This document shows, in pieces, positions 41,770 to 60,876 of a DNA stretch of 64,000 nt (position 1 is its first letter; every line of letters starts with the position of its first letter). Under the pieces are notes generated by a model. The model made no database searches, was not told the origin of the DNA, and saw only the letters and a program-made list of their open reading frames with translations. Made by a program: the position numbers and the translations under genes. Origin of the DNA: a virus (taxonomy: Duplodnaviria > Caudoviricetes); IMG/VR virus record IMGVR_UViG_3300042256_000025; one strand, written 5' to 3'.

Positions 41770-43231
41770 CCTTCTGTCCACTACAGACGCGACTCTGTAG
41801 CCGGTGTGCTTCGACACCCACCCCTGCTTTCACAGGGGAGCAGACCATATCACCTTCCTTCCACAGCGTGGTTAGGAAGCCTCCCGTATGGCAGGCGCTT
41901 GCCCGCTACTCCGCGCTACCGGATGGCCGTTGAACTCACTCCGTGTTACCCATAGGTAAGGTAGGAGCTTCGCTGCGTCGGTTGCCCAATCTCTAAGGGT
42001 TTTTACCATGCCTCTCACTTCCATTACTGGGAGAGGGATTACCCTACCTTTCGGTGGGTAAGGGGTACCTTAGAGCTATCAGGGGTTTCCCGCAGTTAGA
42101 GAGGATCCCTTAAACATCTCTGCCTAAGGGGACTTAGGATGTTTCCCTAGATAAGTGATGTGGTAGTGTTTCCATCTACCGTGGTTTTTCCATACGCTTC
42201 TTGCAACTGCCGCCTTGGTGGCGCCGACAGACGTAGCGAACTCTAAGATAGATTTGTATACCTCAGAAGTATCGGTCTTCAAGTTTATTACCCTTACAGG
42301 CAAAGGCTTCCGAACAGGGGCCGTAGGCTTTGGATTTTCCTTAGCCTCGACTTCCACAAACCCAGTAGTGTCAATACCGGCTGTGTGTAGATAAGTAAAC
42401 CAATAGCCATTTAAAATGTATTTTCTCCCCCGCTTTATGGCCTTATTGATCACCGCCCCACTGCGATTGAACGCCTCCGCACATGCGGTTAGTGTTGGGT
42501 AAATATACTTTACGTCGCCCTCATCTACCGGTATAGCCAGAACGGCTTTCGGTCGCCCACGTCTAGGGGTACCTATGTCTTCACGTGCTAAGCATGGCCA
42601 GGGCTCACCCTCAACGCGCAGACTAAAGAACTCCATAAAGGGCTCTTTTCTACCGCCCTTTAAATACCTATGGATGGCTTCGCCGTTCCGCTTAAAGTGT
42701 CGTGCTGCAGCCTGAAGGCTGTTAAAAGTAGTGACCGTACTATCACGTAGATCCATTACCTCAACCACCAAGTTATCAGTCCGCAACCCACTTTCGTAGG
42801 CGTGTCGAAGGTTACCGCTATAGCAAGTCCATTCTAAATTGCCAACAGATGAATCTGACTTGTCACCGTTGATGTGGTTTATAACAACCTCTTCCGGTTT
42901 TTTGGGCGAGGGTAGAAAGGTCTCACCCACTAGCCGGTGTATAAGGCGGGTACCATCTACTTTGTTATAGACTGCCGGATAACCAGACACAGTGGTCTGT
43001 GTCGCAGGTAAGTCAGTTAGAAGGTCATAAACCTCTCCAGCGGAATTAACAGCAAAGGTTTCACACCCAGCTGCCAAAACAAATCCATCCAAAGATTTAA
43101 TGCGCGTATGGTTGTCGGTAGGGTCAATCATCTTTATACCTCACATGTTATAGGTCCAAATGATTGTACCCATACTTTATTTTTTACCAGTAGTTACAAT
43201 CAACTTACTAGGGTTAACACTCCTAACGATT
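41770..43231 (-). mobile_element. Group I intron with HNH ORF inside the RNAP catalytic motif NAD|FDGD
   Basis: Exon ends GAU; P1 cugaU-aauc-Guuag; P AACTGCGGGAA, Q GACGCAGCG, R GTTCAACGGCCA, S GATATGGTC; terminal G. Confidence 0.92.
42124..43131 (-). CDS. Intron-encoded HNH homing endonuclease
   Basis: LIHRLVGETF..INHINGDKSDSSVGNLEWTCYSGNLRH plus NUMOD1-like repeats. Confidence 0.9.
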   Translation of the reverse strand: MIDPTDNHTRIKSLDGFVLAAGCETFAVNSAGEVYDLLTDLPATQTTVSGYPAVYNKVDGTRLIHRLVGETFLPSPKKPEEVVINHINGDKSDSSVGNLEWTCYSGNLRHAYESGLRTDNLVVEVMDLRDSTVTTFNSLQAAARHFKRNGEAIHRYLKGGRKEPFMEFFSLRVEGEPWPCLAREDIGTPRRGRPKAVLAIPVDEGDVKYIYPTLTACAEAFNRSGAVINKAIKRGRKYILNGYWFTYLHTAGIDTTGFVEVEAKENPKPTAPVRKPLPVRVINLKTDTSEVYKSILEFATSVGATKAAVARSVWKNHGRWKHYHITYLGKHPKSP

Positions 43232-44467
43232 ATCAGCGTTAGGAGCCTTCGTGCATAAAACTGACAACGTCGACACTCCTGAGGTCAGAGCATGTATATG
43301 CATGCACTGAATACTTCCCCTCGCAAGGGTCGGATAGCGGACCCACAGACAGCGTACGCCTTTACCCCCTGGGGCCTCTTGGAAGATCTCATAGAGTAGC
43401 TCCTCTAGCAGTGCATTGCGTGTGATGGTGTGACGATCGATGTATTCCCAGGCTTCTCGATGACTATAGCCCTTCTTGTAGAGTTTATTCAACAAGTGAA
43501 CTTTAAACATCGTAACCGCTTGAGAGTACGGGATCTTTATTTGCTCATAGTCATGTACCCCTGATTCCGAGACAATCACAGACCGGAATGCAAACGGTGT
43601 GCGTCCACCAAAGACGGTGTTACGCAGGAGACCTTCCTTTTTGGAGAAGGGGTCACCGAACATGTCGCTGTAGTAGCTAGCCAGCGAGTTAATGATGGAG
43701 GTAATCTTGCCTTCTAAGCGGCGTACGTTTGCATAGGTCTCCTCGTCGATAGACGTAATAGTGCGGGCCGCGTCTAGCGCTTCACGAATAGCGGTATCGG
43801 CATAGGTACCCGTAGCCGTGTTCTCCATGACGAATGCGATCTTATTCGGCATGGGGAGGTGTTGTGGAAAGAAGCGGTCCCGGTAGACGGTGAAAAACGT
43901 CTGCATGGACTCGCGTTCGTGTCTGGGCAATAGGGTTAAAATGGCCTCAGCGATATCATCAAAGTGGGCAATGAAATTATTCAGGCCTCTTGGGATGCCT
44001 GTTTTCATTAACCTATGTTTAATCATCGAGGCTTTCTTATTTGACTCAGGGGGATCTTCCATGAGTGGTGCACAGAACCACTGTAGTACATTAAAGCGTG
44101 ATCCAGTCATTATTGGAGATAGAATCATCCACAGCATTGGATTTACAAGGCTATAGATGCCTTGAGGGGCACGGAACCATACATTAGAGACGATCTCTTG
44201 GTCACCGGCTGCCTCTACACGGGTATTGCACTTAGGACAGAGTTGCCCTAGGTTATAGCCATAGGAGAGGTGACCACAGCTGCAGGAGGGAATCGATTCC
44301 AGTGTATCGGTGTGGTCATAAGTTGTCATGATCATAGCGTTCAATGCATCCCGCTCTTCCTTCGTTCGGGCCGGAACATCATTCAGGATGATCGGTGTGA
44401 AAGGGAGGGAGTGGAAGGCCCGATCGTGGTCATGGATAGAGAAAGCAATCATTTCATTCTCGTGCAT
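43232..44467 (-). CDS. rpoC: nvRNAP beta' N-terminal subunit, exon 1 (phiKZ gp55-like)
   Basis: Zn ribbon SCSCG..CPKC, KEGLLRNTVFGGR, RYPTL, ends KAPNAD; spliced product 480 aa. Confidence 0.92.
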
Positions 44468-44631
44468 GGTTTTATCCCTCTATATGTAATGGAATTATGA
44501 AAAAAATAATAACTATAGATAAAGGACTACTTTACAGTAAACCCTTATCTACTACAATGTAAGGTTAGAATTTAACTTAGACGCCTACCACACAAAACAT
44601 TATGTCTATGTGGTAACTTCTCCCTACATTG

Positions 44632-44664: not shown

Positions 44665-45186
44665 TTAAACTGTAATTCTCTTAAAAGGAATTACCCAGTA
44701 ACTGCTGGTCTTGTTGGCGTAGTACCAATTCCCACCGCTGAAGTTAAGCACCCAGGCGTTGTAGGAACTGAACTCGGAAGAGGACCAGACGATCGCCGTG
44801 GGTAGACTGCCACTACTATCTAACGCATCTATCTGAGTCCTATTATTATAAATAAGCTGTAAATCGGATGCATTGGGCAGGTCATACCCTAGACTACGAC
44901 AATATTCTGCTGCAGGGCATCCAATGTTACCATACGAATCAGAGATAGAATTGTAAGTAGGACTAACCAATACACTAGTATTGTACACGGAAGAGTTTGG
45001 ATCAGTAGGGGTAGTGGGTGAGCCATTAGTACCACTTGCATTAGGCAGATTAGTATCAGTACCGTATAAACCCCAATCTTTAGTAGTACGTAGGCTAGCT
45101 GGAGCTACTACTAACCAGTCTCCATTATCCTGTCCAAAGATAATCCCTCCATACGGAAGGGTTGTACCAATCTTTATATCACTCAT
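44665..45186 (-). CDS. DUF1566/C-type-lectin-fold protein, putative DGR target (copy 3)
   Basis: AAEYC..YDLPNASDL..VWSSSE..AW...F..G..WVIPFKR; variable region 44692..44799. Confidence 0.8.
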   Translation of the reverse strand: MSDIKIGTTLPYGGIIFGQDNGDWLVVAPASLRTTKDWGLYGTDTNLPNASGTNGSPTTPTDPNSSVYNTSVLVSPTYNSISDSYGNIGCPAAEYCRSLGYDLPNASDLQLIYNNRTQIDALDSSGSLPTAIVWSSSEFSSYNAWVLNFSGGNWYYANKTSSYWVIPFKRITV

Positions 45187-45215
45187 AGCTATACCTTCTT
45201 TTTTGCTAATGTACA

Positions 45216-45782
45216 TTAGTTTTGTATATGAATTCTCTTAAATGGCACTACCCAGCAGATGCTGTGTTTGTAGCTGTAGTACCAATTCCCATTGCTGAAA
45301 TAAAGCATCCAGGCACTATAGGAATTGTACTCGGAAGAGGTCCAGACGCGCGTCGTGCCATACTCTGGCATATTCCCAAACTCAATAACCGATAGTGTGG
45401 GCCCTTCGGTGGTATCTGTAGCATCAATAGCTACCCTATTATCGTAGATTAGCTGCAAATCAGATGCATTGGGTAGGTCGTACCCTAGAGTACGACAGTA
45501 TTCTGCAGCGGGGCAGCCTACGTTGCCAAATGCATCGATAGTAGCACTATACTCATTACTAGTCAATGTACTAGTATTGTACTTACTACTATTCATATCG
45601 TTTGGTTTAGTAGGTGAGCCAACACTGCCACTCGTATTTGGAAGACTAGTATCTGTAGCGTATAATCCCCATGGCTTAATGATACGCTTACTAGCTGGAG
45701 CTACCACCAGCCAATCCCCACCATCTTCTCCGAATACAACCCCTCCGTCCTCTAATACACTACCTACCTTTAAGCCGCTCAT
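45216..45782 (-). CDS. DUF1566/C-type-lectin-fold protein, putative DGR target (copy 2, more diverged)
   Basis: Same architecture; variable region 45249..45356. Confidence 0.8.
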   Translation of the reverse strand: MSGLKVGSVLEDGGVVFGEDGGDWLVVAPASKRIIKPWGLYATDTSLPNTSGSVGSPTKPNDMNSSKYNTSTLTSNEYSATIDAFGNVGCPAAEYCRTLGYDLPNASDLQLIYDNRVAIDATDTTEGPTLSVIEFGNMPEYGTTRVWTSSEYNSYSAWMLYFSNGNWYYSYKHSICWVVPFKRIHIQN

Positions 45783-45809
45783 GGCTTTAGTACCCTTTGA
45801 CATTGTACA

Positions 45810-46376
45810 TTAGTTTTGTATATGAATTCTCTTAAAAGGAATTACCCAGCGACTGCCGAGCTTGTTGGTGCAGTTCCAATACCCATAGCTGAAGAGAAGA
45901 CTCCAGGCGTTGTAGGAACTGTACTCGGAAGAGGACCAGACGCTCGACGTGGTGGAGCCAGGGGCAGTACCAGAGGAAATAGCCGATAACGTAGCTCCAC
46001 CGCTAGTGTCCAATGCATCAATCTGAGTCCTATTATTATAAATAAGCTGTAAATCAGATGCATTGGGTAGGTCGTACCCTAGACTACGACAATACTCTGC
46101 TGCAGTAGCCCCTACATTACCCTGTCCATCATTGATGGAATTGTAAGTAGGGCTAGTAAGTACATCCGTATTGTATTCTGATGAGTTAGGGTCAGTAGGG
46201 GTAGTAGTAGTCCCACTGCCACTCGTCCAGTTTGGAAGACTAGTATCAGTACCGTATAAACCCCAATCTTTAGTAGTACGTAGGCTAGCTGGAGCTACTA
46301 CAAGCCAATCTCCATTATCTTCTCCAAATACAACTCCACCATCAGGAAGAATTGTACCAATCTTTAAATCAGTCAT
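45810..46376 (-). CDS. DUF1566/C-type-lectin-fold protein, putative DGR target (copy 1)
   Basis: Same architecture; GGAGG RBS; variable region 45843..45950. Confidence 0.8.
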   Translation of the reverse strand: MTDLKIGTILPDGGVVFGEDNGDWLVVAPASLRTTKDWGLYGTDTSLPNWTSGSGTTTTPTDPNSSEYNTDVLTSPTYNSINDGQGNVGATAAEYCRSLGYDLPNASDLQLIYNNRTQIDALDTSGGATLSAISSGTAPGSTTSSVWSSSEYSSYNAWSLLFSYGYWNCTNKLGSRWVIPFKRIHIQN

Positions 46377-46440
46377 TTGTACCCTCCATATGTAATAACA
46401 GTAGTTTATTACAGTAAATTATAATTAAAGTGGCATAGTA

Positions 46441-46469
46441 ATAAGGAGACCCCGAAGGGTCTCCTTATT
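46441..46469 (-). terminator. Terminator hairpin after chmA
   Basis: ataaggagacc-ccgaag-ggtctccttat. Confidence 0.7.
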
Positions 46470-46475
46470 ATGGTT

Positions 46476-48431
46476 TCATCGGTTAAAGGGCTTGTTGAAT
46501 ACGGGGTTGATGTAGCTACCACGCATCTGCTCACCCATCGGGCCGGTCTGACCGTACGGAGACTGGTAGAAACCAGCTGCGTTGTAGGTACCACCGAAGT
46601 TCGGGTCGATACCCTGACGCTGCATGCCCTGATCGTAAGCGACCATGTCATCGGAGATGATACGGACGTCATTGTTGATCAGTGCCTGTACCAGACAGGG
46701 AATGAAGTTCGGTGAGAAGTACACCCGAGTGGCCATGCCGTTGATGTTACAGTCACCGGCAACGGACATCAGGCAGCGACGACGATCGGACAGGTTAATG
46801 TTGTTAGCGATACCCGGAGTCATTGCTGCGGTAGCCTGGGCTACGAACTGCAAGTCTTTCGGAGATGCTGCCAGCATGGTCAGATAATCGATAGTGCGCA
46901 GGTCACGAGCGCGACCGTCCTTATCGGTGTAGGTACCGAGGTGGACAGTAACAGTATCGTGGTGCATCACCGCAGCCTTAGCGTTACCGCTGTTAGCCTG
47001 TGCCCACACCTGGGAGAAGGCTCCGCCAGTCAGTGCATCGCATTCAGCGATGATGTCATCATTGGCGCCAGAGCGCGGGTTCTGCGCTGCAGCAATGAAT
47101 ACAGACTGTACCCACTCCAGACGACCGCCCTGCTCCACGTCCAGTGCAACAGCAACATTCTGCGTGCACCACTTATTGGCCATGCTGAACGGGGTTTCCT
47201 TACCTTCCTCCGGTACCTTGTTCAGGGAGACGGATTCAACCGGCACCTTACCCAACGCTTCCGGACCACGACCATAGGGATCGTATTCCAGACCCAGCAG
47301 ACCGATGGACTGCTTCTGTGTCTTCTGACCCGGGTAGGTTTCGAAGACACGAACCCAACCATGGTTAGCGGTCATGGCCAGCGTTGCAACCAGACCCATC
47401 AGCTGGGTGCGCAGGTCTTCAATTGAACGTCCGGAGTTAGCCAGACCGGCCACCTCGGTCAATATCACGACCGGCATGTAACCCGGCTTCGGTACCTGCG
47501 GCTGCTGCAGCTGGGCGTACGGGGACGACTGCTGCTGGGTTATGATATTGAAGTCTATGTAACCGGACACTTCGGCCAAGTTATGCTCCTGAGTACCAGT
47601 GTGTACCTGGTACATGTCACCCTGCTTCTGATTCACACGGGTCAGTTTGATGGATGTATTAAAGTCAGCTGCAATCGGCTGGCCAATACGGTTCAAACGA
47701 CACTCACCCGGAGTGATTGTAGTGCGCTGACGCACTGCAACCTGTGGGTTACGCAGGTGCTTGGCGGTTACACGACCCACGCCCTGACCACCAGCAGCAT
47801 CGATGATCGCCAGATGTGCAGAGTCAAAGTACACTCGAGTCACCTCAGCAGAGGACAGGTCCGCTGCTTTCGGTACCACACAGTGGCCGATATGAACCAC
47901 ATCAGCCGGATTCACCTTGTACTGGCTAGCCACGAAGGTGGAGACCACTTCACGCAGCTTGCTATCGAAGCAGCGGGTGGTTGGTCGATCAGTGATGATG
48001 TCCTTCTGACCCGAATAATCTCGGATTGTCTCCACGATCGGTTCCAGCTTAGAGGACATCATGCCCTCAATCAACAGGTTGTACACTACGACCTGCTTGG
48101 TGGCGCTGGAAACCGCACACAGTGCCAACACCGGCAGATACAATTGCTGACTTGAAACGGAGACCACCTCCAGTTTCAGCATGTTGCTGATCTCTGGCAG
48201 TCCTGCCAGTCGCTTCATCTCTTCACTGAAGGCTGCGAAGCCTTCAGTATCCATACCACCGGACAGGGTGGTGACACCCAGGCCATCGAAAGGATCTGTA
48301 CCGTCATACTCGTTATAACGAGTATTGTTACTATACCCCTGTTGTGGCTGGGGCTGATGTGTCTGCTGTGCAGCCTGCGGCTGTGCAGTCTGGTCCGCAG
48401 TTTTGTTCTGAGAGTTGTCATTCACACGCAT
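46476..48431 (-). CDS. chmA: Chimallin, major phage-nucleus shell protein (phiKZ gp54/PhuN-like)
   Basis: 651 aa; disordered Q-rich N-terminus; VSGYIDF, VHLGTYTDKDGRARDLRTIDYL, ATRVYFSPNFI patterns; lies upstream of the RNAP beta' gene; early promoter; codon bias of a highly expressed gene. Confidence 0.85.
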   Translation of the reverse strand: MRVNDNSQNKTADQTAQPQAAQQTHQPQPQQGYSNNTRYNEYDGTDPFDGLGVTTLSGGMDTEGFAAFSEEMKRLAGLPEISNMLKLEVVSVSSQQLYLPVLALCAVSSATKQVVVYNLLIEGMMSSKLEPIVETIRDYSGQKDIITDRPTTRCFDSKLREVVSTFVASQYKVNPADVVHIGHCVVPKAADLSSAEVTRVYFDSAHLAIIDAAGGQGVGRVTAKHLRNPQVAVRQRTTITPGECRLNRIGQPIAADFNTSIKLTRVNQKQGDMYQVHTGTQEHNLAEVSGYIDFNIITQQQSSPYAQLQQPQVPKPGYMPVVILTEVAGLANSGRSIEDLRTQLMGLVATLAMTANHGWVRVFETYPGQKTQKQSIGLLGLEYDPYGRGPEALGKVPVESVSLNKVPEEGKETPFSMANKWCTQNVAVALDVEQGGRLEWVQSVFIAAAQNPRSGANDDIIAECDALTGGAFSQVWAQANSGNAKAAVMHHDTVTVHLGTYTDKDGRARDLRTIDYLTMLAASPKDLQFVAQATAAMTPGIANNINLSDRRRCLMSVAGDCNINGMATRVYFSPNFIPCLVQALINNDVRIISDDMVAYDQGMQRQGIDPNFGGTYNAAGFYQSPYGQTGPMGEQMRGSYINPVFNKPFNR

Positions 48432-49890: not shown

Positions 49891-52092
49891 TTATGCTGTG
49901 TTATAGATATTAACGTCAACCTCTTTCGAAAGTAGACGCGTTTTCTTTTTGTTTCTAAGGTAGATACCCATGGTTTCAAGTATAATCAAGAACCCGGCCA
50001 TCATCTCAGACTCAATGTGCTCGACGTTAATTACCTTCAGTATCTCCTCAGGTACCTTACCCCTTTGTAACCGCGAGCGAGGGATCAAAAAGTTACTGAA
50101 GCTGTTACGGCCCGTTGCCTTCGTGCCGCAGGTCGGACAGACGACATCCTTCTCTGACGTCTCCTCACACTGACAGCTATACGAAGCCGCTAGCCATTCG
50201 CGTAACCCCTCCTGCATCTCAGGCTCCAACGTCTCCATCCACTCTTTAAGCTTAACGGGTGAACCTAAGTCCACCGGGACCTTCACTGCCGCGTAAGGAG
50301 GGGGGTCAGCCACACCATAACGACAGGCAAAGACCTTATTCCAAAGATCATAGTGAACGTGGTTCGATTTCGATGCATTCTTATACGCCTTGGCGGCCTT
50401 TATCTGCATAGAGGCTAGATACGTGGACTCACCGGCCAGGATCGAGCGGTTAACCTCATGGGCGAGTGTAACGGGCACCCGAAGGGCCTCATACATCGTA
50501 GGGCGATTATTCGCCATAATGGAGTCCATGATCCATTTGATATAGTTACCCAGTGTATCGGTAATGATACTCGGAAGACGAGAGTTCTTAAGGTTCACGC
50601 CCTTCGAGTCAAACTCAGGTTCTGGGTAGACGTTACCCTCACAGGCACGAATGTATGAAAAGTAATGCTTCGCCATATTCGTAACGCCCAGTACCGGCTG
50701 ATAGAACTCAGACTTCATCGCCAGTCTAAAGAGCTTATCGTCTTTGACCCCTAAGTGTCTGGACAAGTGTGCCAGTACATGTTTAAGTACCTGAGAGTCA
50801 ATGTACGCCATTGCCCCCGCTACCGACATTCCTCGACGGGTAAAGTCATTTTGCCCGATGTACCAGACCACCCAGTCTTCGGTGGTAAAGATTGTGGAGT
50901 CGGTATCCGAGACCACTGCACAGTCCCTTAGGATCGTGGGTATGCTGTGTACACCATGCGGCATGTGGTCTGACTTAAGAAACGCATCGATGTAGAGCTG
51001 ATAATTAGTTAATGCCTCCTGTGTTTGTTTAATGGCCGCGCCATAGAGTTTATAACCCTCAGGGTTGTCCTTGGCCATATCGCCCACGGTTTTACCACTA
51101 AGCTCTTCGGACATCACCAAACCAATCATGGCGACCAAATCAGGATGTGCACCCTGTACATACGTATCAGGGTCCTCTACCCCCTCTAGAGGCTTCTCTA
51201 CCAACTGGCCGATGAAGGCGCGCATAAATCCTTCATTCACATCCCGCATGGCCCTAAGGTCATAGGTAAAGGCGACCACCGCCCGGTGCCAATCCTCCAT
51301 TTTATCAATAAAGACACTGACCTGTTCTATACCCTTAGGGGAGCGCCAGTAGCGACGACAGCTTTTAAAGATATGTGCCTTAAGATAGTCAGGGGTGGGG
51401 GCACTGAGTTTGTACGTGGCAAGTGCTTCCTTAACCAGTGTCTCATCAGCCAAACGAATCGAAGCGGCCATCTCAGATAAGGTAACCTCACTGCTATAAT
51501 AGTGGCGGTTCCCCATGAGCAGGCGTTCAGCTACCGCATTGGAGTAACTGGTTGCGCAGCGACAAATGGAGGTTAGGGTAGTATGTGCCGAGGCATTGTA
51601 AATCGGGTTATGTGGACTGGCGTGGGCACCCGAGATAGAGTTGTTCAGAATCTTGATGGTAGACTGCTGGTTGTTACAGAAGGTGGCCAGCTCCATGTTA
51701 CCCTCCATCTTGGCCTTTTGCCCTTCTTTCTTCACCTTAGAGCGCCGCTGAAGACCTTGATCGATAAAGTCAGGTAAGAACCCTAGTTTCTTATCAGGGT
51801 TTGAATACATGATGAGGTTAGGGCCCAGGATCCGGCCGGTGTGTTCGATCTCATTCAAGTAATTGGTTAACGGCTGCTTCTCTTTACGTCGATCTGGCGA
51901 ACCGTCTCTGCGGGCTAGGGTCTTGAGTACCGGCTCTTGAAACTGACTATTAGACTTTAACCACTCTAAAGCAACGTCCTTAGGCTTGCCCGACATGATG
52001 CTTAAATATTGCGCCATGTTTTCATGGTAGTTATTCAGTATATTAATGTCGCGCGTGTATTCTGACGGTGCGCGTACAAACGGATCTTTCAT
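49891..52092 (-). CDS. Split family-B DNA polymerase, polymerase subunit (phiKZ gp50-like)
   Basis: Motif B QQSTIKILNNSISG, motif C SDTDSTIF, KHY and KGV. Confidence 0.88.
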   Translation of the reverse strand: MKDPFVRAPSEYTRDINILNNYHENMAQYLSIMSGKPKDVALEWLKSNSQFQEPVLKTLARRDGSPDRRKEKQPLTNYLNEIEHTGRILGPNLIMYSNPDKKLGFLPDFIDQGLQRRSKVKKEGQKAKMEGNMELATFCNNQQSTIKILNNSISGAHASPHNPIYNASAHTTLTSICRCATSYSNAVAERLLMGNRHYYSSEVTLSEMAASIRLADETLVKEALATYKLSAPTPDYLKAHIFKSCRRYWRSPKGIEQVSVFIDKMEDWHRAVVAFTYDLRAMRDVNEGFMRAFIGQLVEKPLEGVEDPDTYVQGAHPDLVAMIGLVMSEELSGKTVGDMAKDNPEGYKLYGAAIKQTQEALTNYQLYIDAFLKSDHMPHGVHSIPTILRDCAVVSDTDSTIFTTEDWVVWYIGQNDFTRRGMSVAGAMAYIDSQVLKHVLAHLSRHLGVKDDKLFRLAMKSEFYQPVLGVTNMAKHYFSYIRACEGNVYPEPEFDSKGVNLKNSRLPSIITDTLGNYIKWIMDSIMANNRPTMYEALRVPVTLAHEVNRSILAGESTYLASMQIKAAKAYKNASKSNHVHYDLWNKVFACRYGVADPPPYAAVKVPVDLGSPVKLKEWMETLEPEMQEGLREWLAASYSCQCEETSEKDVVCPTCGTKATGRNSFSNFLIPRSRLQRGKVPEEILKVINVEHIESEMMAGFLIILETMGIYLRNKKKTRLLSKEVDVNIYNTA

Positions 52093-52290
52093 TAGACTTA
52101 CTCCAGACGTAAGGGTCGAGCAATCAATTCTACTACCCTATAGGGGCTACCAATCTAAATAGAAAAAAAAATAACCCCACTCCCGAAGGAGTGAGGGCGC
52201 CTAATATTAACGGCTAACCCACCGAGGTGGGACCTTTAACCAAGGGGTAAAGCATGTACATCTTCCACATGAGATAGGGATGGTGAGTAT

Positions 52291-52716
52291 TTATTCACTG
52301 ACTTCAATTCTATCGATCTTGTATCCGTTTGACAGTAGAAGGGCACGAATAGCTGTCGTATCAGGATCTCGAAAATCAGTCAGGGTAATGGTAGCTTTGG
52401 ACACTGTATTGACATACAGGGCGGATTCAATGATCCAAGCCTCTCCGACATACAGAATAGCGCCGTCGTTTGCCTTAATCATAAGGTAATTATAGGCGGT
52501 CCAGTCATCCGGATAAATAGCTTTAACGTTATCCGGCAAATGTCGATAGATATTGGCGTGATGAGTAGCTGCATCGGCGGATGGGGGGACTCCGTCACTG
52601 TTTAGACGGGCCAGTATCTTGCCTTCAATCTCAACACGACCCGACATAGTGCTGTACAGTGACATATGTACGTTGTCGTTAAGGGTGAGTTGGTGTATTG
52701 TGACGGCGTTTAACAT
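52291..52716 (-). CDS. Conserved hypothetical protein
   Basis: GGAG RBS before MLNAVT; HANIYRHLP..VGEAWI. Confidence 0.6.
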   Translation of the reverse strand: MLNAVTIHQLTLNDNVHMSLYSTMSGRVEIEGKILARLNSDGVPPSADAATHHANIYRHLPDNVKAIYPDDWTAYNYLMIKANDGAILYVGEAWIIESALYVNTVSKATITLTDFRDPDTTAIRALLLSNGYKIDRIEVSE

Positions 52717-53023
52717 GTTGTAATCTCCGTGTTCGCGCGGCGTAGGTACCGAGCGCATCGATGAACTTTAAAGTAGATAGATCAAGTTCAGCTTGATTCC
52801 ACTGATCAATGATCTCAATTAGGGGCTCTTGAAGGGAAAGTGGAAGAGCCTCTAGGGGCTCTAAATCACCATCATCCAAAGCTAGGACAATGTCCGTCAG
52901 TCGCTCTAACCCCTGTGCGATGATAAGGGGTGTGATGGGGATGTCAGGTGAGTCCTCTATTATCCACATCATAATGAGGGGCAGTATCTCGACCCGACGG
53001 TCTATTATAATTGTAGCCATCAT
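52679..53023 (-). CDS. Hypothetical protein
   Basis: Overlapping ORF in the small-gene operon between phuZ and the polymerase gene. Confidence 0.5.
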   Translation of the reverse strand: MMATIIIDRRVEILPLIMMWIIEDSPDIPITPLIIAQGLERLTDIVLALDDGDLEPLEALPLSLQEPLIEIIDQWNQAELDLSTLKFIDALGTYAARTRRLQHVKRRHNTPTHP

Positions 53024-53435
53024 CCGTCCTTATTAACAGACTATTGCCACCCAAGAGCTCTACCTGTAAAATAGGGGTCAGGTATATGGGGTGGTGTGGC
53101 GGTATCAGCTTGAGCTGCTCATATAACTCCGAGCAGAGTGTATGCAGGCAGTAGTATATCATCTCCTCCAAGTCACTGCGCCAGCCTTTATCGAGAAATG
53201 ACATTATATCATCGACATACGTATCCGATAAAATGGTGTCTACGACATCACCCACAATATCCTCATCCCACCCATGACTAATCGCCGCGGCTAAGTGCTC
53301 AACTGCACCGGGGAGGGGTTTAAATAAGTAATGGTACCAGCGATGGATGGTCGCGGGGTTAATACTTACCTCAGCTTGTAGTGGATATAGAAGATGATAG
53401 AGATGGGGTATGGATATAATTACAATTGTGCCCAT
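52944..53435 (-). CDS. Hypothetical protein
   Basis: 163 aa, GGAGG RBS. Confidence 0.55.
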   Translation of the reverse strand: MGTIVIISIPHLYHLLYPLQAEVSINPATIHRWYHYLFKPLPGAVEHLAAAISHGWDEDIVGDVVDTILSDTYVDDIMSFLDKGWRSDLEEMIYYCLHTLCSELYEQLKLIPPHHPIYLTPILQVELLGGNSLLIRTDDGYNYNRPSGRDTAPHYDVDNRGLT

Positions 53436-53449
53436 GGTAGCGCCCTCCG

Positions 53450-53830
53450 CTAAATGAATGACACGATGACAGTATTAGGCCCGATAATGGTTGCACGGGT
53501 AACGGGTTTACCTAAATACGGCATAATTAACGCCTCTTGCGGGTACTCAAACCCGGCAATTAGCTCCATTAACCATTCCTGTATAACGTCATAGTCTAAC
53601 ATAAAAAGGGCCTCACGAATAACCCTGCCCTGGTCTGACTCTAAAAGATGGGTGGCGAGTATATCAGTTGACTGCAGTCCGTTTGGACGCCATCGACCGA
53701 TAACGTCTACTGATAAAAGGTGGTTATAAAGGATAGGTAATATACCCCCCACTACCGGATGGTAGTGGGGGTCTATGGTGTTTTCCTCTATACCGTAATG
53801 CGTGAGTATCAGGCTATGGTAGCCTCTCAT
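53450..53830 (-). CDS. Hypothetical protein
   Basis: GGAGG RBS before MRGYH. Confidence 0.55.
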   Translation of the reverse strand: MRGYHSLILTHYGIEENTIDPHYHPVVGGILPILYNHLLSVDVIGRWRPNGLQSTDILATHLLESDQGRVIREALFMLDYDVIQEWLMELIAGFEYPQEALIMPYLGKPVTRATIIGPNTVIVSFI

Positions 53831-54245
53831 TGGACCCTCCTGCCCAATACGGGTTATCAACTGTAAGGTTTGGCACAATGTTAATAGCTACTGTAGATGG
53901 CGGCACTAACGAGACACTTTGTTCCTCATGTATATAAATCGACATAGGGACTGGTACGATGCTGTTTTTAACCGCCTCCAGTATCTCGTAGGCCACCGAC
54001 TCCCATTGGTAGGCACGGGTACAAACGTCACAGTCATGACACCCGCACTCTAGCGTCGGCATGTGACCCATCCAATCGCTGTCCAGTACGTACGTAACCA
54101 CATCGTCCATCCGTGCATCCGGATCCTGCTCAGCCAAATAAAAGAGCGCATACAGGTCTTCGGCCAATGCCATGAAGTCGGTACCCGCCTGCAAGACTTG
54201 TGGCGGTATGGGCTGGCGATGTATTATTAGTCGTGCCATATTCAT
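53814..54245 (-). CDS. Hypothetical protein with Cys cluster
   Basis: CGCHDCDVC; ATGA overlap with the upstream gene. Confidence 0.55.
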   Translation of the reverse strand: MNMARLIIHRQPIPPQVLQAGTDFMALAEDLYALFYLAEQDPDARMDDVVTYVLDSDWMGHMPTLECGCHDCDVCTRAYQWESVAYEILEAVKNSIVPVPMSIYIHEEQSVSLVPPSTVAINIVPNLTVDNPYWAGGSNERLP

Positions 54246-54649
54246 GCGTGCCCCCAACCGGTATTATGGGTAGGTACAATAGGCTGTCGAATAGGGGGGT
54301 CTGGCCACCATTTAATGACACCTGTCCCCTGCGATAGCCACTCGACCACATAAGTATGGTTCCACTGAGGAGCACCTACGGTGGACTGCAACAATGCATC
54401 TACCGCATCATAGAGTCGCTTCTCTATATAGCTTCGGTAATCTGTTGGTACGGACAGTGTGATCATTACATCCGTAAGGGGATCATTACAATGGGTACGG
54501 AACATAGAACCGTAAAGCTGACAATCCACCTCATGACGTACGATGTCACAGGTATCGACCACCGAAGCAGCTGTATCGAACTGAATAAGCCAATCTGACA
54601 AAGCCTTAGCTGTAGGCACTACACCTATTATTCCGCACCCTTCACTCAT
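54242..54649 (-). CDS. Hypothetical protein
   Basis: 135 aa; TAATG stop-start overlap. Confidence 0.55.
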   Translation of the reverse strand: MSEGCGIIGVVPTAKALSDWLIQFDTAASVVDTCDIVRHEVDCQLYGSMFRTHCNDPLTDVMITLSVPTDYRSYIEKRLYDAVDALLQSTVGAPQWNHTYVVEWLSQGTGVIKWWPDPPIRQPIVPTHNTGWGHA

Positions 54650-55305
54650 TACTCACCTCGCATTCGATGCCAGTCCTGTATGCGATAGTCCCCATCGTAA
54701 ATTAATACGTGGAGCTTGCCCGCTAGATGCAGGCTCCACACGTCGTATGGATTCTCACTACGCACACGGTGTAAGGCACCGTTCAAATGGTAGATTGGCT
54801 CAATGTCGTCAAAGAAACACAGGATTTCTTCTATCTGACGGACAATGTCCTCTTCTGATTCGGAAGGTTTGTTAAAGTTAATATCCTCACCCGACAACTG
54901 TCGAACCAGTTCTGCCATTTGAACAGGGCTGACCTTCGCTTTCGAGAGCACCTGTTGTAAACCAAAGCTGGGACCATTTTGAATATAGTCCTCTATGGCC
55001 GCCAGGAGAATGGCGTCCTCCATTACATTGCGGTAGGTGCCGGTCTCCACATAGCTCTTCGCCAATGCCCCCCGTACCTTAGCCACCACATGGTCACGGG
55101 TGTATTCTGGTACGGTCCACCCCATCACTCGGGCGAGCGGTGCCTCGATGACATCACGTACATGGGCAACGACGAGGTTATAGCAGAAGACTTTATCGTA
55201 GTTAAGGTTCGGGATGAGACCCGCTTTAGCGCCCCCCACAAAATAGCTGTGTAACAGGGCGCCATAGCGGTTAAGGTCTAAAATAACACGTTTGTTCTCA
55301 GACAT
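54649..55305 (-). CDS. Conserved hypothetical protein
   Basis: 218 aa; C-terminal GDYRIQDW pattern typical of this phiKZ-like block. Confidence 0.6.
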   Translation of the reverse strand: MSENKRVILDLNRYGALLHSYFVGGAKAGLIPNLNYDKVFCYNLVVAHVRDVIEAPLARVMGWTVPEYTRDHVVAKVRGALAKSYVETGTYRNVMEDAILLAAIEDYIQNGPSFGLQQVLSKAKVSPVQMAELVRQLSGEDINFNKPSESEEDIVRQIEEILCFFDDIEPIYHLNGALHRVRSENPYDVWSLHLAGKLHVLIYDGDYRIQDWHRMRGE

Positions 55306-55327
55306 ACGTCTATCCTTGATACGTCAC

Positions 55328-55741
55328 TCATCGTCGAATGATTGCAGTGGGTGAATGGGCTAGGATCAATGCAACGTCGCCTGGTCCTAGGATCTCAACA
55401 TCAAATCCTAGACTAGCCGCGGCCTCGCCGAACTCAGGAGTAGGCGAGAGTGCACGATAGAGGTCGCTGGAGTATTCCTCCAAAGCACGGTTAATGGATA
55501 CTTCCATCTCCAGACAAGGTGGGCGATAGCGGGTCGGTAAGTAGGTAAGCAAGAACATGTCTTCTAATCTACGCCCCAGCCAGTACCGGTAGAGGTCCAT
55601 AACACTATTACCTCGATCATCCTGAGGCTCTACCATCGTAAAGTCTCTAACCTGCAAACAGGCATGGATGATTTCCCGTATGTCCCGATCTACACTGCGA
55701 TCAAAATGATGAATAATCGTAGTAAAGGGAAGCTTACTCAC
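55328..55741 (-). CDS. Hypothetical protein
   Basis: 137 aa; AAGGAG RBS before GTG. Confidence 0.55.
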   Translation of the reverse strand: MSKLPFTTIIHHFDRSVDRDIREIIHACLQVRDFTMVEPQDDRGNSVMDLYRYWLGRRLEDMFLLTYLPTRYRPPCLEMEVSINRALEEYSSDLYRALSPTPEFGEAAASLGFDVEILGPGDVALILAHSPTAIIRR

Positions 55742-55789
55742 ACCAAGCTCCTTCGTTAAAGAGGGGGAGAGACTCCCCCTGCACCCTAT

Positions 55790-56851
55790 TTAGAACACCA
55801 TACCACTGTCGTCCGTAGTACGGTCACCCTTATCCATTACCTGATGAACCCCAACGGGTGTAGCACTGGCCAGTGACGCCCGCACACTGTCGTAGCCACG
55901 GATTGCCATTTCGACGCCCCCCATAATTTGACCAATGCGACTGGCAGAGGTTGCGAAATGGAAGTTAGGCATATCCTTAGTGCCCCAGACTTTACCGTCG
56001 TAGTATCCGACACAACTATACGGCTGACCCAATGACGGAATCTCATCCCCATCACTGTTGAGCAATGACGCTGTCGAAATAACGGCACCGTCCAAGGCCG
56101 TAATATCGATACCCTGCCATTCGGGTTTACCACCAAATGTCTGTTTAAAGGGCAAAACCTCAATCAACTGAGATGGGATGTCCGCATGGTTGCGGCTATG
56201 GTCCAACCAGTTTACCAGGTCAGTGTGGTCCAGCTCATGGTGACTGCCACAGAACAAGAGACCCAGCTGACGTACGATCTCCTCGACACGATTATCGATA
56301 TCAGGACGAGAGCCCAGGTACCCATCATTGCCGCGATTATCACTGGCCGCGTTTTCCTGATAGATCATCATAATCGGCCGATTGTTGGTAGCCTTACCCA
56401 TGGCCATAGACTGCAAGGTTTCCAGGGTACGCAGGGTATTCTTGGCCTCAATACCTGAATAGGTACTGCCCACCACCAGCGTAATGACGTTAGCGCCACG
56501 ACGCAGTAGTTCAGCTGTCACCAAAGGACCTACCACAGAACCGCTGCCACCTGATGCAGAGAACATAACCAGGTTGTAATCAGACGGTTTGTGCTCCACC
56601 AACATGTTGTTGACGTGATCGTTCACGCCCTCGAAAGCTTGCTGGCGCTTCTTACCCGCGCCACGCAGACCCGGTACCAAGAAGGTTTTAATATCATCAC
56701 CCAGATCACGGATGTTTGAATCCGAGGTATCCAGCGCATATTTTCGCACAGTGGGATAGTAAGACACCTCAGTATCCTGAGGCAGACGAACAAAATCTTT
56801 GAGTAAGTTAATACCTGCACCGCCGCAGGCATAGATTGACATTGTGGACAT
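55790..56851 (-). CDS. phuZ: PhuZ phage tubulin
   Basis: YACGGAGINL, ALDTS, GAGK, SASGGSGS tubulin signature, ELDHTD, acidic C-terminus DDSGMVF. Confidence 0.93.
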   Translation of the reverse strand: MSTMSIYACGGAGINLLKDFVRLPQDTEVSYYPTVRKYALDTSDSNIRDLGDDIKTFLVPGLRGAGKKRQQAFEGVNDHVNNMLVEHKPSDYNLVMFSASGGSGSVVGPLVTAELLRRGANVITLVVGSTYSGIEAKNTLRTLETLQSMAMGKATNNRPIMMIYQENAASDNRGNDGYLGSRPDIDNRVEEIVRQLGLLFCGSHHELDHTDLVNWLDHSRNHADIPSQLIEVLPFKQTFGGKPEWQGIDITALDGAVISTASLLNSDGDEIPSLGQPYSCVGYYDGKVWGTKDMPNFHFATSASRIGQIMGGVEMAIRGYDSVRASLASATPVGVHQVMDKGDRTTDDSGMVF

Positions 56852-56910
56852 GTGTTTTCCTCTTGGTTAATGGTTACAGGGCTCCGCCCTTATACGATAA
56901 GGGTAGGCCC

Positions 56911-57201
56911 TTATTTTTTAGACGTTTTCGTTACCCAGCCCAAAGGCATACGAGATGCCTCGATATCCGCCAATCGTGTACGGTAGGCGGCCAGCAAATT
57001 GCCTACTGGATACAGGTACCGATTGGCCTGTAGGCTCTTAATCTGACGGTTACTGTCCGTATACAGATTGAGGTAATTGTTGCGCTCCAGAATGCGCTCT
57101 ACTACCAGTGCCATACGACTGTCGTCTTTAAACTTCTGAAGATGTGCCAGACACTCCTCATAGGTTTCCAGTCGTTTGTCGCCTGCAATATTCAAGTACA
57201 T
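56911..57201 (-). CDS. Hypothetical early protein upstream of phuZ
   Basis: 96-aa ORF downstream of an early promoter motif. Confidence 0.55.
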   Translation of the reverse strand: MYLNIAGDKRLETYEECLAHLQKFKDDSRMALVVERILERNNYLNLYTDSNRQIKSLQANRYLYPVGNLLAAYRTRLADIEASRMPLGWVTKTSKK

Positions 57202-57266
57202 AGTCTCTTCCTTCTGTCTACATTGAATAGGTGGTTATTGCGTAGATTAATTCTACTGGCTTAAGG

Positions 57267-57277
57267 GTAATATAGGT
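57267..57277 (-). promoter_or_regulatory. Early promoter motif for the phuZ operon
   Basis: ACCTATATTAC 66 nt upstream of ATG 57201. Confidence 0.75.
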
Positions 57278-57339
57278 TTTCCTTAGAAACCATTGACCTG
57301 AGTCGATCCTATGACACGTGACAATATTAAGGGACCCTT

Positions 57340-58077
57340 ATGGCAAACATGGTAACATATGCGGTAAGCCGCATCATGCGAGAGATTCCGCACGAGGTGC
57401 TCTATCAGGCCTTTGGCTCGAATGAGTGGTATAACTACCTTAACCAACTCAGTATTGAAGAGCGTATTCGACGAGAAGTGATTAACGGCATCGTACTGCC
57501 TGATTGCAATATTGTAGGCGGTGAGTCCTACGTTGTGAACTTGGGTGGACTGGTATGGCAATGGTTAGAGAACGGTGCACGTATTGAAATTCCAATGTCA
57601 ATGACATTGAATCGCCCTATTTCGTCCGTATTGTCAATTGAGACGACCTATCGTAACTCTGAGCCCTATGGCAGCATGCCTGGACAACCCGGGCCAACCG
57701 GTCTGAACGAAGTGTACCTCGTGGGCCCTAACGTTATCTTTACACCGATTAACCCCGGTAACCTCAATTGCTTCTTGCGCTGTATACTCGAAAACGACGA
57801 ACAATTGACAAACATTAGCCAGAAGGCAATGTATGTATTTGGGGACCTCGCTGTATTGGCTGCAAAGATGTATGTTTATAATAAGTTATCGGTTAGTACC
57901 ACAATCACGGCGATGACCGGCGGTCAAGTGGATGGTCGGCTGCGGGGTATTATCGATGGGTATAGTGATGCGGCGCAGATGTACGGTGAGCTGCTACAGC
58001 GACGTATTAAAAAGATCTCGATGATGCAGGATCGAAAATGGCACCATCGCTTTATTGGCATGGGGCTAAACGATTAA
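57340..58077 (+). CDS. Conserved virion structural protein
   Basis: 245 aa; IPHEVL..AF, VLPDCNIVGG, IIDGYSDAAQMY patterns of a phiKZ-like structural family. Confidence 0.6.
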   Translation: MANMVTYAVSRIMREIPHEVLYQAFGSNEWYNYLNQLSIEERIRREVINGIVLPDCNIVGGESYVVNLGGLVWQWLENGARIEIPMSMTLNRPISSVLSIETTYRNSEPYGSMPGQPGPTGLNEVYLVGPNVIFTPINPGNLNCFLRCILENDEQLTNISQKAMYVFGDLAVLAAKMYVYNKLSVSTTITAMTGGQVDGRLRGIIDGYSDAAQMYGELLQRRIKKISMMQDRKWHHRFIGMGLND

Positions 58078-58080
58078 GGA

Positions 58081-59175
58081 TTGACTATGTACAGTTCAGA
58101 TGTTGAATTTAACCGTTGTGTAGATGAGTTGACGTGGTTAACGGATACTTTACCAGGTCTTGTGGAGTTAGGCATAAAGGGTGATGCTGACTCTCCGGTG
58201 GTACGTGCCGTGGAGACCAGCTTAGGGATAGAGGGACTTAAAGATTGGCTGGAGGATGCCGCAGATGCAATCATTGCCCTACTGCGTCGATTAAAGGAGT
58301 GGTTTCTAAAGCTGGTAGATCATGCATTGGGTAGAGCCTCCCGTAACAGACGTAAACAAAAGACACAGGAAGCGGACCTCAATAAACGGGACGAGACGAT
58401 CACTGCAAGGGCCACGACGGACAGTGGAGAAACGCAGGATATCGATGACGTCCGTAAGACCATTGAGGCGATGGAAGCTGAGATTGATCTACTTAAAGAG
58501 GCCCAGGCACTTCAGTCGGACATTATTGTGGAGATGACTAAAGACCTTAAACTGGCTATGGAGGACATTAAGCGCACAGGCCATCCGGTTGTACGGGATA
58601 AAGCTAAGGCACTTACGTCTGAGCGAGTTGAGCGTATGATGGACCGTGACCTCTTGAGGGGTAAGAAGCCTTATCGTGTACAAAAACATGCCAATGGGCT
58701 AGTAACCGAGTTTATTATACTTTACGGCATGGGTAAGAAGTTTAAGGTTGCATTGATCACACGTGATGGCCCTTATCTTGTGAAGTATGAAGAGAAATGG
58801 GTGAGTCGGGACATGGATCCCAAGTTACCAGAGCCGGTAGGCTATGCAACAAACACTGTAATGGCGCTTAAACGCTGTAACAGGGCCATAGAGCGCTATC
58901 TAAAGGCAGCTGAGCGTGCTGGTGTAAATGAGGACACACGTCGTCAAATGGAAGCACATACCAAAGTAGTGGAGGAGCTGACCGAGCGCTTTAAACAGTT
59001 AGCGAAAGACTATGAACTGGATGGTGAGGTGCGGACACAATTTAACGCTAAACTAAATGAAGTCAGCACTAGAATTACCGAACTTGCACAGCGCGCAGCC
59101 ACCCACGTCGATGGCGATCAGAAAGCTATTGCTGAAGTACTGCGTACAATAGACGAGTTAGCGGAAGTATATTAA
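58081..59175 (+). CDS. Putative internal head protein, coiled-coil
   Basis: Acidic propeptide ending near GIE|GL, then an amphipathic helix like that of 3505..4725. Confidence 0.55.
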   Translation: MTMYSSDVEFNRCVDELTWLTDTLPGLVELGIKGDADSPVVRAVETSLGIEGLKDWLEDAADAIIALLRRLKEWFLKLVDHALGRASRNRRKQKTQEADLNKRDETITARATTDSGETQDIDDVRKTIEAMEAEIDLLKEAQALQSDIIVEMTKDLKLAMEDIKRTGHPVVRDKAKALTSERVERMMDRDLLRGKKPYRVQKHANGLVTEFIILYGMGKKFKVALITRDGPYLVKYEEKWVSRDMDPKLPEPVGYATNTVMALKRCNRAIERYLKAAERAGVNEDTRRQMEAHTKVVEELTERFKQLAKDYELDGEVRTQFNAKLNEVSTRITELAQRAATHVDGDQKAIAEVLRTIDELAEVY

Positions 59176-59179
59176 AGCC

Positions 59180-59207
59180 CACACTCCCTCCGATCGGAGG
59201 GAGTGTG
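59180..59207. terminator. Terminator hairpin between convergent genes
   Basis: cacactccctcc-gatc-ggagggagtgtg. Confidence 0.75.
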
Positions 59208-59210
59208 TCT

Positions 59211-59609
59211 TTATGCGGTGAACATAGTGATGGGGCGTAATGCGTAGTCTAGCCCTGCCCTGCTAACGAGTCCAGGATAGTAGACAGGGTGAAGCCAGTT
59301 AACCGAGGTCGTGTCAGTGGGCCACTCGACGACGTAGTGGCTAGTGACCCCACTGGGGTAGATATATTTCGTTATGCGCTTAGGGGCAAGGCGATTACCC
59401 GGTGGTTCACCCCTTCGCGTTGCCTTCTCCATCATGATTAGCCTACGGTTCACCCAGACGTGTTTACGGATAGCCTGTCTCCGGTACCGCCTAACATAGT
59501 AGGTGACTATAACCGCATCCAGTGTAAACCGATGCCGTAATAAGAACGCACCGTCCGCTAAGAGGTACCGAAGGGCGAGAATGAGGCGATTAAAAATCAA
59601 ACCCATCAT
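59211..59609 (-). CDS. Hypothetical basic protein
   Basis: 132-aa ORF overlapping the end of nrdB. Confidence 0.45.
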   Translation of the reverse strand: MMGLIFNRLILALRYLLADGAFLLRHRFTLDAVIVTYYVRRYRRQAIRKHVWVNRRLIMMEKATRRGEPPGNRLAPKRITKYIYPSGVTSHYVVEWPTDTTSVNWLHPVYYPGLVSRAGLDYALRPITMFTA

Positions 59610-60831
59610 CGAAGTTACCCAAACTACCCACGTCTACACTGCTGTCGATTTGACCAACCAGATAAGACGACAACTCTGTTTCCTGTGGAGCGGGTTGTAC
59701 CGCATCAGAGGTTACCCAGCTACGCATCCAGGGTAGGGGGTTTGACTTCAGATGCCCTACGATGGGCCCCCAGCCCAGGTTATCGGATGCCTCATCGGCA
59801 ACCCATTCTAGGTACTCATTCAGGATACGGGCATTAAGGCCGATCATGCTTCCGTCTTTAAAGAGATATTCAATCCATTCAGACTCCTGATCCTTACAGT
59901 CCACCAGAATCTGTTTAAACTCAGCTTGATGGGTTTTAAAGATCTCCTGCATCACAGGATCATTTTCACGCGACCCAATCAGTAGATTCAAAATCTGTTT
60001 GGTGCCTGTCTTATGCAAGAGCTCGTCCCTGCATATGAAACGTACAATCTTAGCGTTACCTTCCATTACACCGCGTTCGGCAAAGGCAAAGGAGCAAGCA
60101 AAGGACACGTAGAAGCGAATAGCCTCCAGTGCATAAACCGATACCATTGCCCGCGCCAGGTGGTACTTCATATTGCGTTCACTGCAGTCGTAGGTAATAC
60201 CAGCGACAGTGTGCTGTCCAAAGGACCCTACCACTGAGTAGATATTAACTAGCTCAATAAAGCGGTCATACTCTTCTGTAACGGCGGTTGCTCGCTTGAT
60301 GATCTCAGGCGTCACCATGATTTCATCCAGTACCGCACTGGGGTCATTAAAGACATTTCGCACGATATGGGTATATGAACGAGAATGCACAGTCTCCGAA
60401 TACGACCAGTTCTCAAGCCAGTTTTCCAATTCGGGTAGAGAACATACTGGTAAGAAAGCAATCGTTGGTGAGCGACCTTGTACAGAGTCCAGCAGAATCT
60501 GGTATTTTAGGTTCGAGATAAAAATGTGCTGCTCATGCGGATCCAGGTTTGCGAAGTCTTTACGATCTCCGGTAACATCAACCTCTTCTGGACGCCAGAA
60601 GTACGAGAGCTGCTTCTCGGATAGCTTTTCAAAGATCTCGTACTTACGTCGATCAAACCGTGCAACATTAATACACTCGCCAAAGAACATCGGCTGTGTA
60701 GTCGCATCCACCGCTTTCTTATTAAAGGTTGAAAACGGCTTATGGGTAACCGGCGCAGCTTTTACACTATCGTCCAGAAAAGCAACGTGGTCTTCTACAT
60801 AGGTAGGCATTGGGGTAGATTTACTATTCAT
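59590..60831 (-). CDS. nrdB: Class Ia ribonucleotide reductase beta subunit
   Basis: FWRPEEVD, LLDSVQGR, ETVHSRSY (radical Tyr), EAIRFYVSF, RDELLH, APQETE. Confidence 0.97.
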   Translation of the reverse strand: MNSKSTPMPTYVEDHVAFLDDSVKAAPVTHKPFSTFNKKAVDATTQPMFFGECINVARFDRRKYEIFEKLSEKQLSYFWRPEEVDVTGDRKDFANLDPHEQHIFISNLKYQILLDSVQGRSPTIAFLPVCSLPELENWLENWSYSETVHSRSYTHIVRNVFNDPSAVLDEIMVTPEIIKRATAVTEEYDRFIELVNIYSVVGSFGQHTVAGITYDCSERNMKYHLARAMVSVYALEAIRFYVSFACSFAFAERGVMEGNAKIVRFICRDELLHKTGTKQILNLLIGSRENDPVMQEIFKTHQAEFKQILVDCKDQESEWIEYLFKDGSMIGLNARILNEYLEWVADEASDNLGWGPIVGHLKSNPLPWMRSWVTSDAVQPAPQETELSSYLVGQIDSSVDVGSLGNFDDGFDF

Positions 60832-60876
60832 TTTACATCCTTTAAACGTAGGGGAGGCTACCCTCCCCGGTTTACA

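Follow-up and report, generated by a model that had tools for sequence, protein, structure and literature searches.

Three tandem genes for small lectin-fold proteins, g1, g2 and g3, were analysed in a 64,000-nt stretch of viral DNA (IMG/VR record IMGVR_UViG_3300042256_000025; Duplodnaviria, Caudoviricetes), the whole of which is called the window below. The 3' ends of these genes bear the footprint of a diversity-generating retroelement (DGR), and a DGR cassette with its reverse transcriptase (RT) and template repeat (TR) is present in the same phage genome. We consider it probable that the trio are secondary, remote targets of the phage's own DGR, which were written from a variant template and have since been left behind.

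Variable regions of the three genes

The three genes and the 108-nt variable regions (VRs) at their ends are the following:

45810-46376, minus strand: g1, 188 aa, stand-alone C-type-lectin/Lcl_C protein, remote DGR-type target (open reading frame, PF07603 match and AlphaFold2 model)
45216-45803, minus strand: g2, 195 aa, paralog of g1 and g3 (open reading frame and PF07603 match)
44665-45216, minus strand: g3, 183 aa, paralog of g1 and g2 (open reading frame and PF07603 match)
45843-45950, minus strand: VR1, 108-nt variable-region core of g1
45249-45356, minus strand: VR2, 108-nt core of g2, the most decayed of the three
44692-44799, minus strand: VR3, 108-nt core of g3

An earlier sequence-only reading of this DNA had described three tandem paralogs that end in alignable 108-nt segments, and both the open reading frames and the alignment agree with it: VR1, VR2 and VR3 align gap-free over 108 nt at the positions proposed. 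The counts given for g1 and g3 were exact, since VR1 and VR3 differ at 19 nt in 13 codons, all of the changes being non-synonymous and 18 of the 19 falling at codon positions 1 or 2 (10, 8 and 1 at positions 1, 2 and 3, respectively). VR2 fits less well, with 24 and 23 differences to the other two, including 6 and 5 at third positions. The same reading had held that g1 and g3 differ only synonymously just upstream. This is true of a block of 32 identical residues (46008-46103 in g1, 44818-44913 in g3), which contains 8 synonymous codon differences, but not of the whole gene bodies, where 31 synonymous and 26 non-synonymous codon differences are found. When only codons for identical residues are compared between g1 and g3, synonymous differences amount to 0/23 in the VR and 31/103 upstream (Fisher p=7e-4); differences at third positions amount to 1/36 and 44/129, respectively. 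Because of these two contrasts, the VR scaffold must be far younger than the gene bodies that carry it, with variable codons that are strongly different.

Neither a further, TR-like copy of the VR (blastn-short) nor an RT (YxDD scan) was found inside the 64-kb window. Exact and degenerate VR patterns run against IMG/VR returned 0, 0 and 1 further VR (L025). Logan contigs carrying the neighbouring chimallin gene all end about 100 nt into g1 and gave no comparison of the VRs between strains.

The DGR cassette and its primary target

The bases that do not vary among the VRs were made into a degenerate pattern, which, when run over public metagenome contigs, retrieved a copy on contig L012 in which all variable codons are AAC or AAT and which lies between an Avd-like open reading frame and a 377-aa RT. 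L012 also encodes a ribonucleotide reductase with 97-98% identity to the product of a window gene, which was used as the anchor to reach the cassette:

60877-63141, minus strand: ribonucleotide reductase large subunit

The exact reductase protein of the window occurs on 20 contigs and, where the contigs reach that far, the RT lies 3.3-4.5 kb upstream. The upstream region holds the RT, the TR and the Avd gene, joined in contig L013 by a gene for a 431-aa target protein. Contig L014 is identical to window positions 50877-64000 at 13,124/13,124 nt and continues for 4,433 nt past the right end. With window-equivalent coordinates calculated as 68434 minus the L014 position, the cassette consists of:

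about 66467-67600 (window-equivalent), minus strand: RT, 377 aa, on L014
about 67606-67734 (window-equivalent), minus strand: TR, about 126 nt, on L014
about 67893-68297 (window-equivalent), minus strand: Avd-like gene, 134 aa, on L014

A remote RT and an AAY-rich template had been predicted, with neither of them nearby. Both are indeed on L014, and their absence holds within the window but not beyond it, as the cassette begins about 2.5 kb past the right end, on the same strand as the trio and about 21.7 kb from VR1. The template sequence predicted from the VRs was correct at 92 of 99 positions when compared by hand (7 differ). In L013 (95 kb, 99.97% identical to part of the window) the order is 431-aa target, Avd, TR, RT. 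One variant of the 431-aa protein (P0136) is recorded on a contig of 199,512 nt, and the longest contig holding g1, g2 and g3 is also 199,512 nt. Relatives of the phage carry the same lectin family together with the same cassette. No RT was found in two IMG/VR contigs with family members, but both contigs are fragments, and an RT homology search without a match on the 199,512-nt contig is uninformative, its table consisting of cluster representatives only.

The RT is intact, with the motifs LPIGNLLSQ (IGxxxSQ) and YVDD, and matches PF00078 (E=1.7e-18). Among PDB structures, the reverse transcriptase 8ub7 (328 residues) matches it best (E=7.5e-31). Identity to brt of phage BPP-1 is 28.6% (E=2e-29), in an alignment that covers 93% of the RT. 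The matches of the 134-aa Avd-like protein to NF033474 (E=5.6e-7, below cut-off) and PF22296 (E=5e-4) are both weak; its position is the expected one. The 431-aa protein combines an Ig-like domain with a C-terminal Lcl_C domain. Over 108 nt its VR (in L013) differs from the TR at 14 adenine sites and at 0/68 non-adenine sites; the homology of VR and TR stops at the same base, and a 10-bp hairpin directly follows the VR (z=-3.5). Three database variants of the protein are identical over residues 1-394 and differ at only 8 VR residues, all of them encoded by adenine-containing TR codons. Judged from sequence, the cassette is a canonical DGR that is active on its primary 431-aa target, because the mismatches of that target are confined to adenine sites and its variants differ only in the VR.

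Two observations were made alongside. Just after the TR (L014 828-880, window-equivalent about 67554-67606) a TTCG loop on a short GC stem (GTCC-TTCG-GGAC) may be part of an RNA element that primes cDNA synthesis; folding of this region was not significant against shuffled sequences. In L012 (4807-8223) the reductase large subunit carries an intein (1138 versus 754 aa; Intein_splicing match), and the window copy is free of it.

Comparison of the trio with the template repeat

The 108-nt core of the TR comprises 40 adenine and 68 non-adenine positions. VR1 is mismatched to it at 20/40 adenine and 4/68 non-adenine sites (Fisher p=1.9e-7), and VR3 at 18/40 and 4/68 (p=2e-6), so that 20/24 (83%) and 18/22 (82%) of their mismatches are at adenines. 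For VR2 the values are 16/40 and 11/68 (p=6e-3), with 16/27 mismatches (59%) at adenines. In a published survey (Roux et al. 2021, PMC8144416), secondary targets were recognised by having 75% or more of their mismatches at adenines, and over the core g1 and g3 lie above this value. The sequence-only reading had made a DGR mechanism depend on adenines at the variable template sites, and 18 of the 19 differences between the VRs of g1 and g3 fall on adenines of the TR (p=1.2e-8).

These data bear on one alternative, in which no retroelement took part and the pattern arose by ordinary divergence of paralogs whose ligand-binding residues were under strong positive selection. Residues in the binding sites of lectin folds do change quickly in evolution, and three differences between g3 and a related gene described below resemble ordinary point changes. 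Selection on proteins cannot, however, leave identical-residue codons free of synonymous change in the VR and not upstream, nor can it place the differences on the adenines of a template that is non-coding and lies in the same genome. The match to the TR effectively refutes this explanation.

The trio falls short of identity with the TR at non-adenine sites, and several of these mismatches are shared. The VRs of g1, g2 and g3 and of two related genes, P0002 and P0003, have CTT/TTC/AGC in place of CTG/TTT/GGC in the TR (non-adenine mismatches at positions 54, 60 and 61), and the same five also differ from the TR at position 51. In the last 18 nt the VRs of the trio show 7-8 differences from the TR, 5-6 of which are non-adenine. 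No hairpin follows the VR in g1 or g2, and in g3 there is only an AT-rich stem further down. Another small family member, P0005, recorded on a contig of the same length as that of the trio, has a VR core with 22 adenine-site and 1/68 non-adenine mismatches and a 3' tail like that of the trio. Since P0005 has a single non-adenine core mismatch despite this tail, remote stand-alone genes are written by this DGR, to which a trio-like tail would be no barrier. The non-adenine mismatches of the trio argue for a different or earlier template and not against an origin from a DGR.

Evidence on variation within the trio came from database copies. In the protein collection g1 and g2 are each recorded on 4 contigs with an identical sequence, and neither has a variant of at least 90% identity. 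The 3' half of g3 and the DNA downstream are near-identical to those of P0003 (L006), with 12 differences in about 480 nt; with differences at 3/108 nt, the two VRs have diverged no further than the DNA on either side. We do not call the trio active, because the shared non-adenine mismatches would be erased by homing from today's TR. The claim that the phage diversifies these three genes therefore stands as far as the DGR footprint is concerned but not as to current activity, given those mismatches and the lack of variants that differ only in the VR, such as exist for the 431-aa target. Current rewriting of the trio is unproven, and the three genes are presumably inactive at present.

Origin of the diversified ends

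In the explanation that we favour, TR RNA would be copied into cDNA, with bases misincorporated at random at adenines, and this cDNA would overwrite the 3' end of a lectin-fold gene. g1, g2 and g3 would each have been overwritten separately, after their bodies had diverged, which would explain why their differences are limited to TR adenines on a scaffold without synonymous change. The template used for this writing (TR') would have been unlike the present TR at positions 54, 60 and 61 and probably at 51. The TR has most likely drifted since and left the trio behind, g2 for longest (11 scaffold mismatches). Rewriting would have gone on in the 431-aa primary target and, among the other remote genes, at least in P0005; we infer this order of events. 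Given the chimallin shell that the phage encodes, RT-Avd or their cDNA would have to reach DNA inside the phage nucleus.

A separate idea, in which the trio would be 'snapshots' of the primary VR made by duplication, was ruled out because their scaffold is far more uniform than the gene bodies.

The main competitor is that the trio is still being diversified, either from a second TR' located elsewhere in the 199.5-kb genome and served by the same RT-Avd, or from the known TR at low frequency. Several observations favour it or weigh against the explanation given above. The scaffolds of g1 and g3 differ at only 1/68 non-adenine sites and their adenine-site content is very different, which fits writing at almost the same time from an earlier template and also recent or continuing writing from a second TR. 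The CTT/TTC/AGC haplotype is common to five VRs, and a second TR that matches the trio may sit in the rest of the 199.5-kb contig. VR2, with its adenine bias of 59%, is below the 75% rule for secondary targets (Roux et al. 2021, PMC8144416). Homing into P0005, a stand-alone gene, occurred despite a diverged 3' tail similar to that of the trio. Consensus contigs cannot show low-frequency variants, and a short metagenome contig (L001) ends inside VR3, where assemblies would often break if the site were heterogeneous. The break in L001 is, however, equally explained by repeats among the paralogs. Searches for TR' in the window, in the loci retrieved, in IMG/VR (0 matches to the TR' pattern) and in JGI/ENA metagenome contigs came back empty, but left most of the 199.5-kb contig uncovered. 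The scaffold of g2 has decayed, which active rewriting would prevent, and neither the protein collection (g1 and g2) nor the comparison with P0003 (VR3) points to variation at present. On balance, we regard continuing diversification of the trio as somewhat unlikely.

Another possibility is that the three genes are fossil targets, captured horizontally in an already diversified state from another genome with a DGR and never written in this phage. The family is indeed mosaic between related phages, since g3 and P0003 have very different 5' halves and near-identical 3' halves, and related copies have differing neighbourhoods. Against such a capture, 64/68 scaffold positions match the TR of the phage itself, the scaffold of the trio is homogenised relative to bodies that diverged within the tandem array, and, as noted above, relatives carry the family along with the cassette. 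Capture in this form is highly improbable, and writing by the phage's own DGR remains the preferred explanation.

Lectin fold and size of the family

The trio had been described as DUF1566-like. The matches to PF07603 (Lcl_C, the former DUF1566) have E-values of 5.5e-4 for g1, 5.4e-5 for g2 and 1.9e-5 for g3, and their scores (20.6-25.3 bits) are under the Pfam gathering threshold of 34.9 bits. Structure prediction, which had been proposed as a check for a C-type-lectin fold, bore the fold out: the AlphaFold2 model of g1 (pLDDT 89, pTM 0.88) is a single C-type-lectin-like domain that matches Lcl_C structures first and C-type lectins next. With VIA-align, the best match is BACOVA_04982 of Bacteroides ovatus (4eps; Z 13.1), followed by the C-terminal domain of Legionella pneumophila Lcl (8q4e; Z 11.8, root-mean-square deviation 2.2 A over 112 residues) and by Bd2740 (Z 9.3). 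About 45 C-type lectin domains, dozens of them from animals, come next with Z 6-7. A Foldseek search of the model against the PDB gave weak E-values only. The likeness to Lcl and BACOVA_04982 lies in structure and in a weak Pfam match, the difference in phage sequences that score below the Pfam cut-off. Given the clear structural similarity to 8q4e, g1-g3 are taken as distant members or relatives of Lcl_C.

Apart from a Thr/Ser/Pro-rich loop of low confidence (residues 51-56 in the g1 model), the phage proteins comprise nothing but the lectin domain. Inspection by eye revealed no obvious signal peptide or anchor domain at the N-terminus; the longer relatives P0010 and P0011 have N-terminal extensions. 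Ligand binding is the likely function of the trio proteins. At least 8 family members are tied to the phage: g1-g3, P0005, P0012, two copies beside P0012 on L005, and the 431-aa target. Apart from the latter, which is anchored, most are bare lectin domains of 150-215 aa.

In the same phage group, clusters of the family also occur at L005 1-2557 and L011 3774-4244, and some of the VRs in these clusters are internal, the coding sequence continuing after them (…RRMQKDIGAVDP…), rather than C-terminal. In a relative of 198,546 nt (L004 978-1382), the g1-like P0002 is followed by a 134-aa open reading frame that resembles the N-terminal part of g3 only and is apparently a truncated member of the family that lacks a VR.

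Genomic neighbourhood of the trio

The three genes are closely packed, with a gap of 6 nt between g1 and g2 and an overlap of 1 nt between the start of g3 and the stop of g2. On the minus strand they are preceded by the gene for a 651-aa chimallin and followed by a 414-aa gene (43223-44467) with a weak match to an RNA-polymerase Rpb1 domain. Neighbouring features are:

46476-48431, minus strand: chimallin (phage-nucleus shell) gene, 651 aa (PF25677 match)
46441-46469, minus strand: GC-rich hairpin that follows the stop codon of chimallin, seen on inspection of the sequence
46382-46395, minus strand: motif TTACATATGGAGGG, just 5' of the g1 start and including the ribosome-binding site

The match of the 651-aa protein to PF25677 (E=3e-18, 65.7 bits) is above the cut-off of 27, and its identity to shell proteins of isolated jumbo phages is 22-27%. 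A 353-aa gene (55790-56851, minus strand) has a weak tubulin (PhuZ-type) match. The chimallin gene marks the phage as one of the nucleus-forming type, which would presumably form a nucleus on infection. The hairpin is terminator-like and would set chimallin apart from the trio, and motif TTACATATGGAGGG is a candidate start of a g1-g2-g3 unit. The motif TTACATATRGAGGG (TATG or TATA and then a ribosome-binding site) has exactly 2 copies in the 64-kb window, both on the minus strand, one before g1 (46382-46395) and one before the RNA-polymerase-like gene (44476-44489); it may be a promoter or leader element shared by these two genes. Neither the trio nor chimallin had a megablast match among GenBank phages.

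Homing endonucleases were seen at two places. A free-standing HNH_3/NUMOD1 gene (42124-43131, minus strand) adjoins the RNA-polymerase-like gene. The tubulin-like gene is intact in the window and, in L013 (16300-19004) and L015 (10875-13588), is split into pieces of 99-102 and 248-256 aa by an inserted gene for a 412-aa HNH/NUMOD endonuclease, in strains that are 99.97% identical to the window on the reductase side. Beyond the insertion, identity falls to about 90%. This suggests a mobile intron or a homing-endonuclease polymorphism.

Relation to known systems and significance

The DGRs known so far belong mainly to temperate phages and to cells, and they usually have one tail-fibre or surface target. 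Like the DGR of BPP-1 (mtd-avd-TR-brt), the present one has the gene order target, Avd, TR, RT, a primary VR that is mismatched at adenines only and is C-terminal in a C-type-lectin fold, a hairpin directly after that VR, and an RT homologous to brt. Unlike BPP-1, a temperate phage of 42 kb with one tail-fibre target, the element resides in a jumbo phage (199.5-kb contig) with chimallin and has one anchored target plus at least 7 further family members. There is also no difference here between initiation-of-mutagenic-homing sites (IMH and IMH*), the primary VR being equal to the TR up to the end of homology.

The multi-target DGRs of Legionella, Treponema denticola and cyanobacteria are reportedly cellular elements, unlike that of the virulent-type jumbo phage described here, whose targets form scaffold 'generations' with 0-1, 3-4 and 10-11 non-adenine mismatches to the single TR seen. 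What this DGR has in common with those that have several targets and remote VRs (Roux et al. 2021, PMC8144416) is a single RT and TR serving several VRs, some of them far off, and targets with a lectin fold of the Lcl_C/DUF1566 type or the formylglycine-generating-enzyme (FGE) type. In a survey that covered 224 jumbo phages, DGR-type lectin domains were not found (PMC7824862). The literature searched links DGRs with neither chimallin nor the phage nucleus, and the phage records with an RT homolog measure 5-137 kb, none being larger among the matches listed. The mechanism is thus a known one, both in its BPP-1-type form and with multiple remote VRs; for the setting, a chimallin-encoding jumbo phage with many anchor-less targets, no description was found. 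The large metagenomic catalogue of DGRs (PMC8144416) may hold such cases without comment, which makes priority uncertain.

A bolder reading, which we hold to be unlikely, is that the active DGR writes a fibre-like protein and, in addition, a repertoire of 8 to 12 genes for free-standing, anchor-less lectin domains, the trio included. RT-Avd would then work inside the phage nucleus, and the proteins would form a library of soluble binders. If this were true, the small proteins would be exchangeable receptor-binding tips or intracellular binders of host factors.

In a nucleus-forming phage, the DNA is kept apart from the cytoplasm, the site of protein synthesis. A DGR active in such a phage would therefore require that RT and Avd be imported through the shell, and this turns their import into a testable question about selective import into the phage nucleus. 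The graded decay of the scaffold among the targets would, in turn, preserve a rarely available internal history of the drift between a template and its targets.

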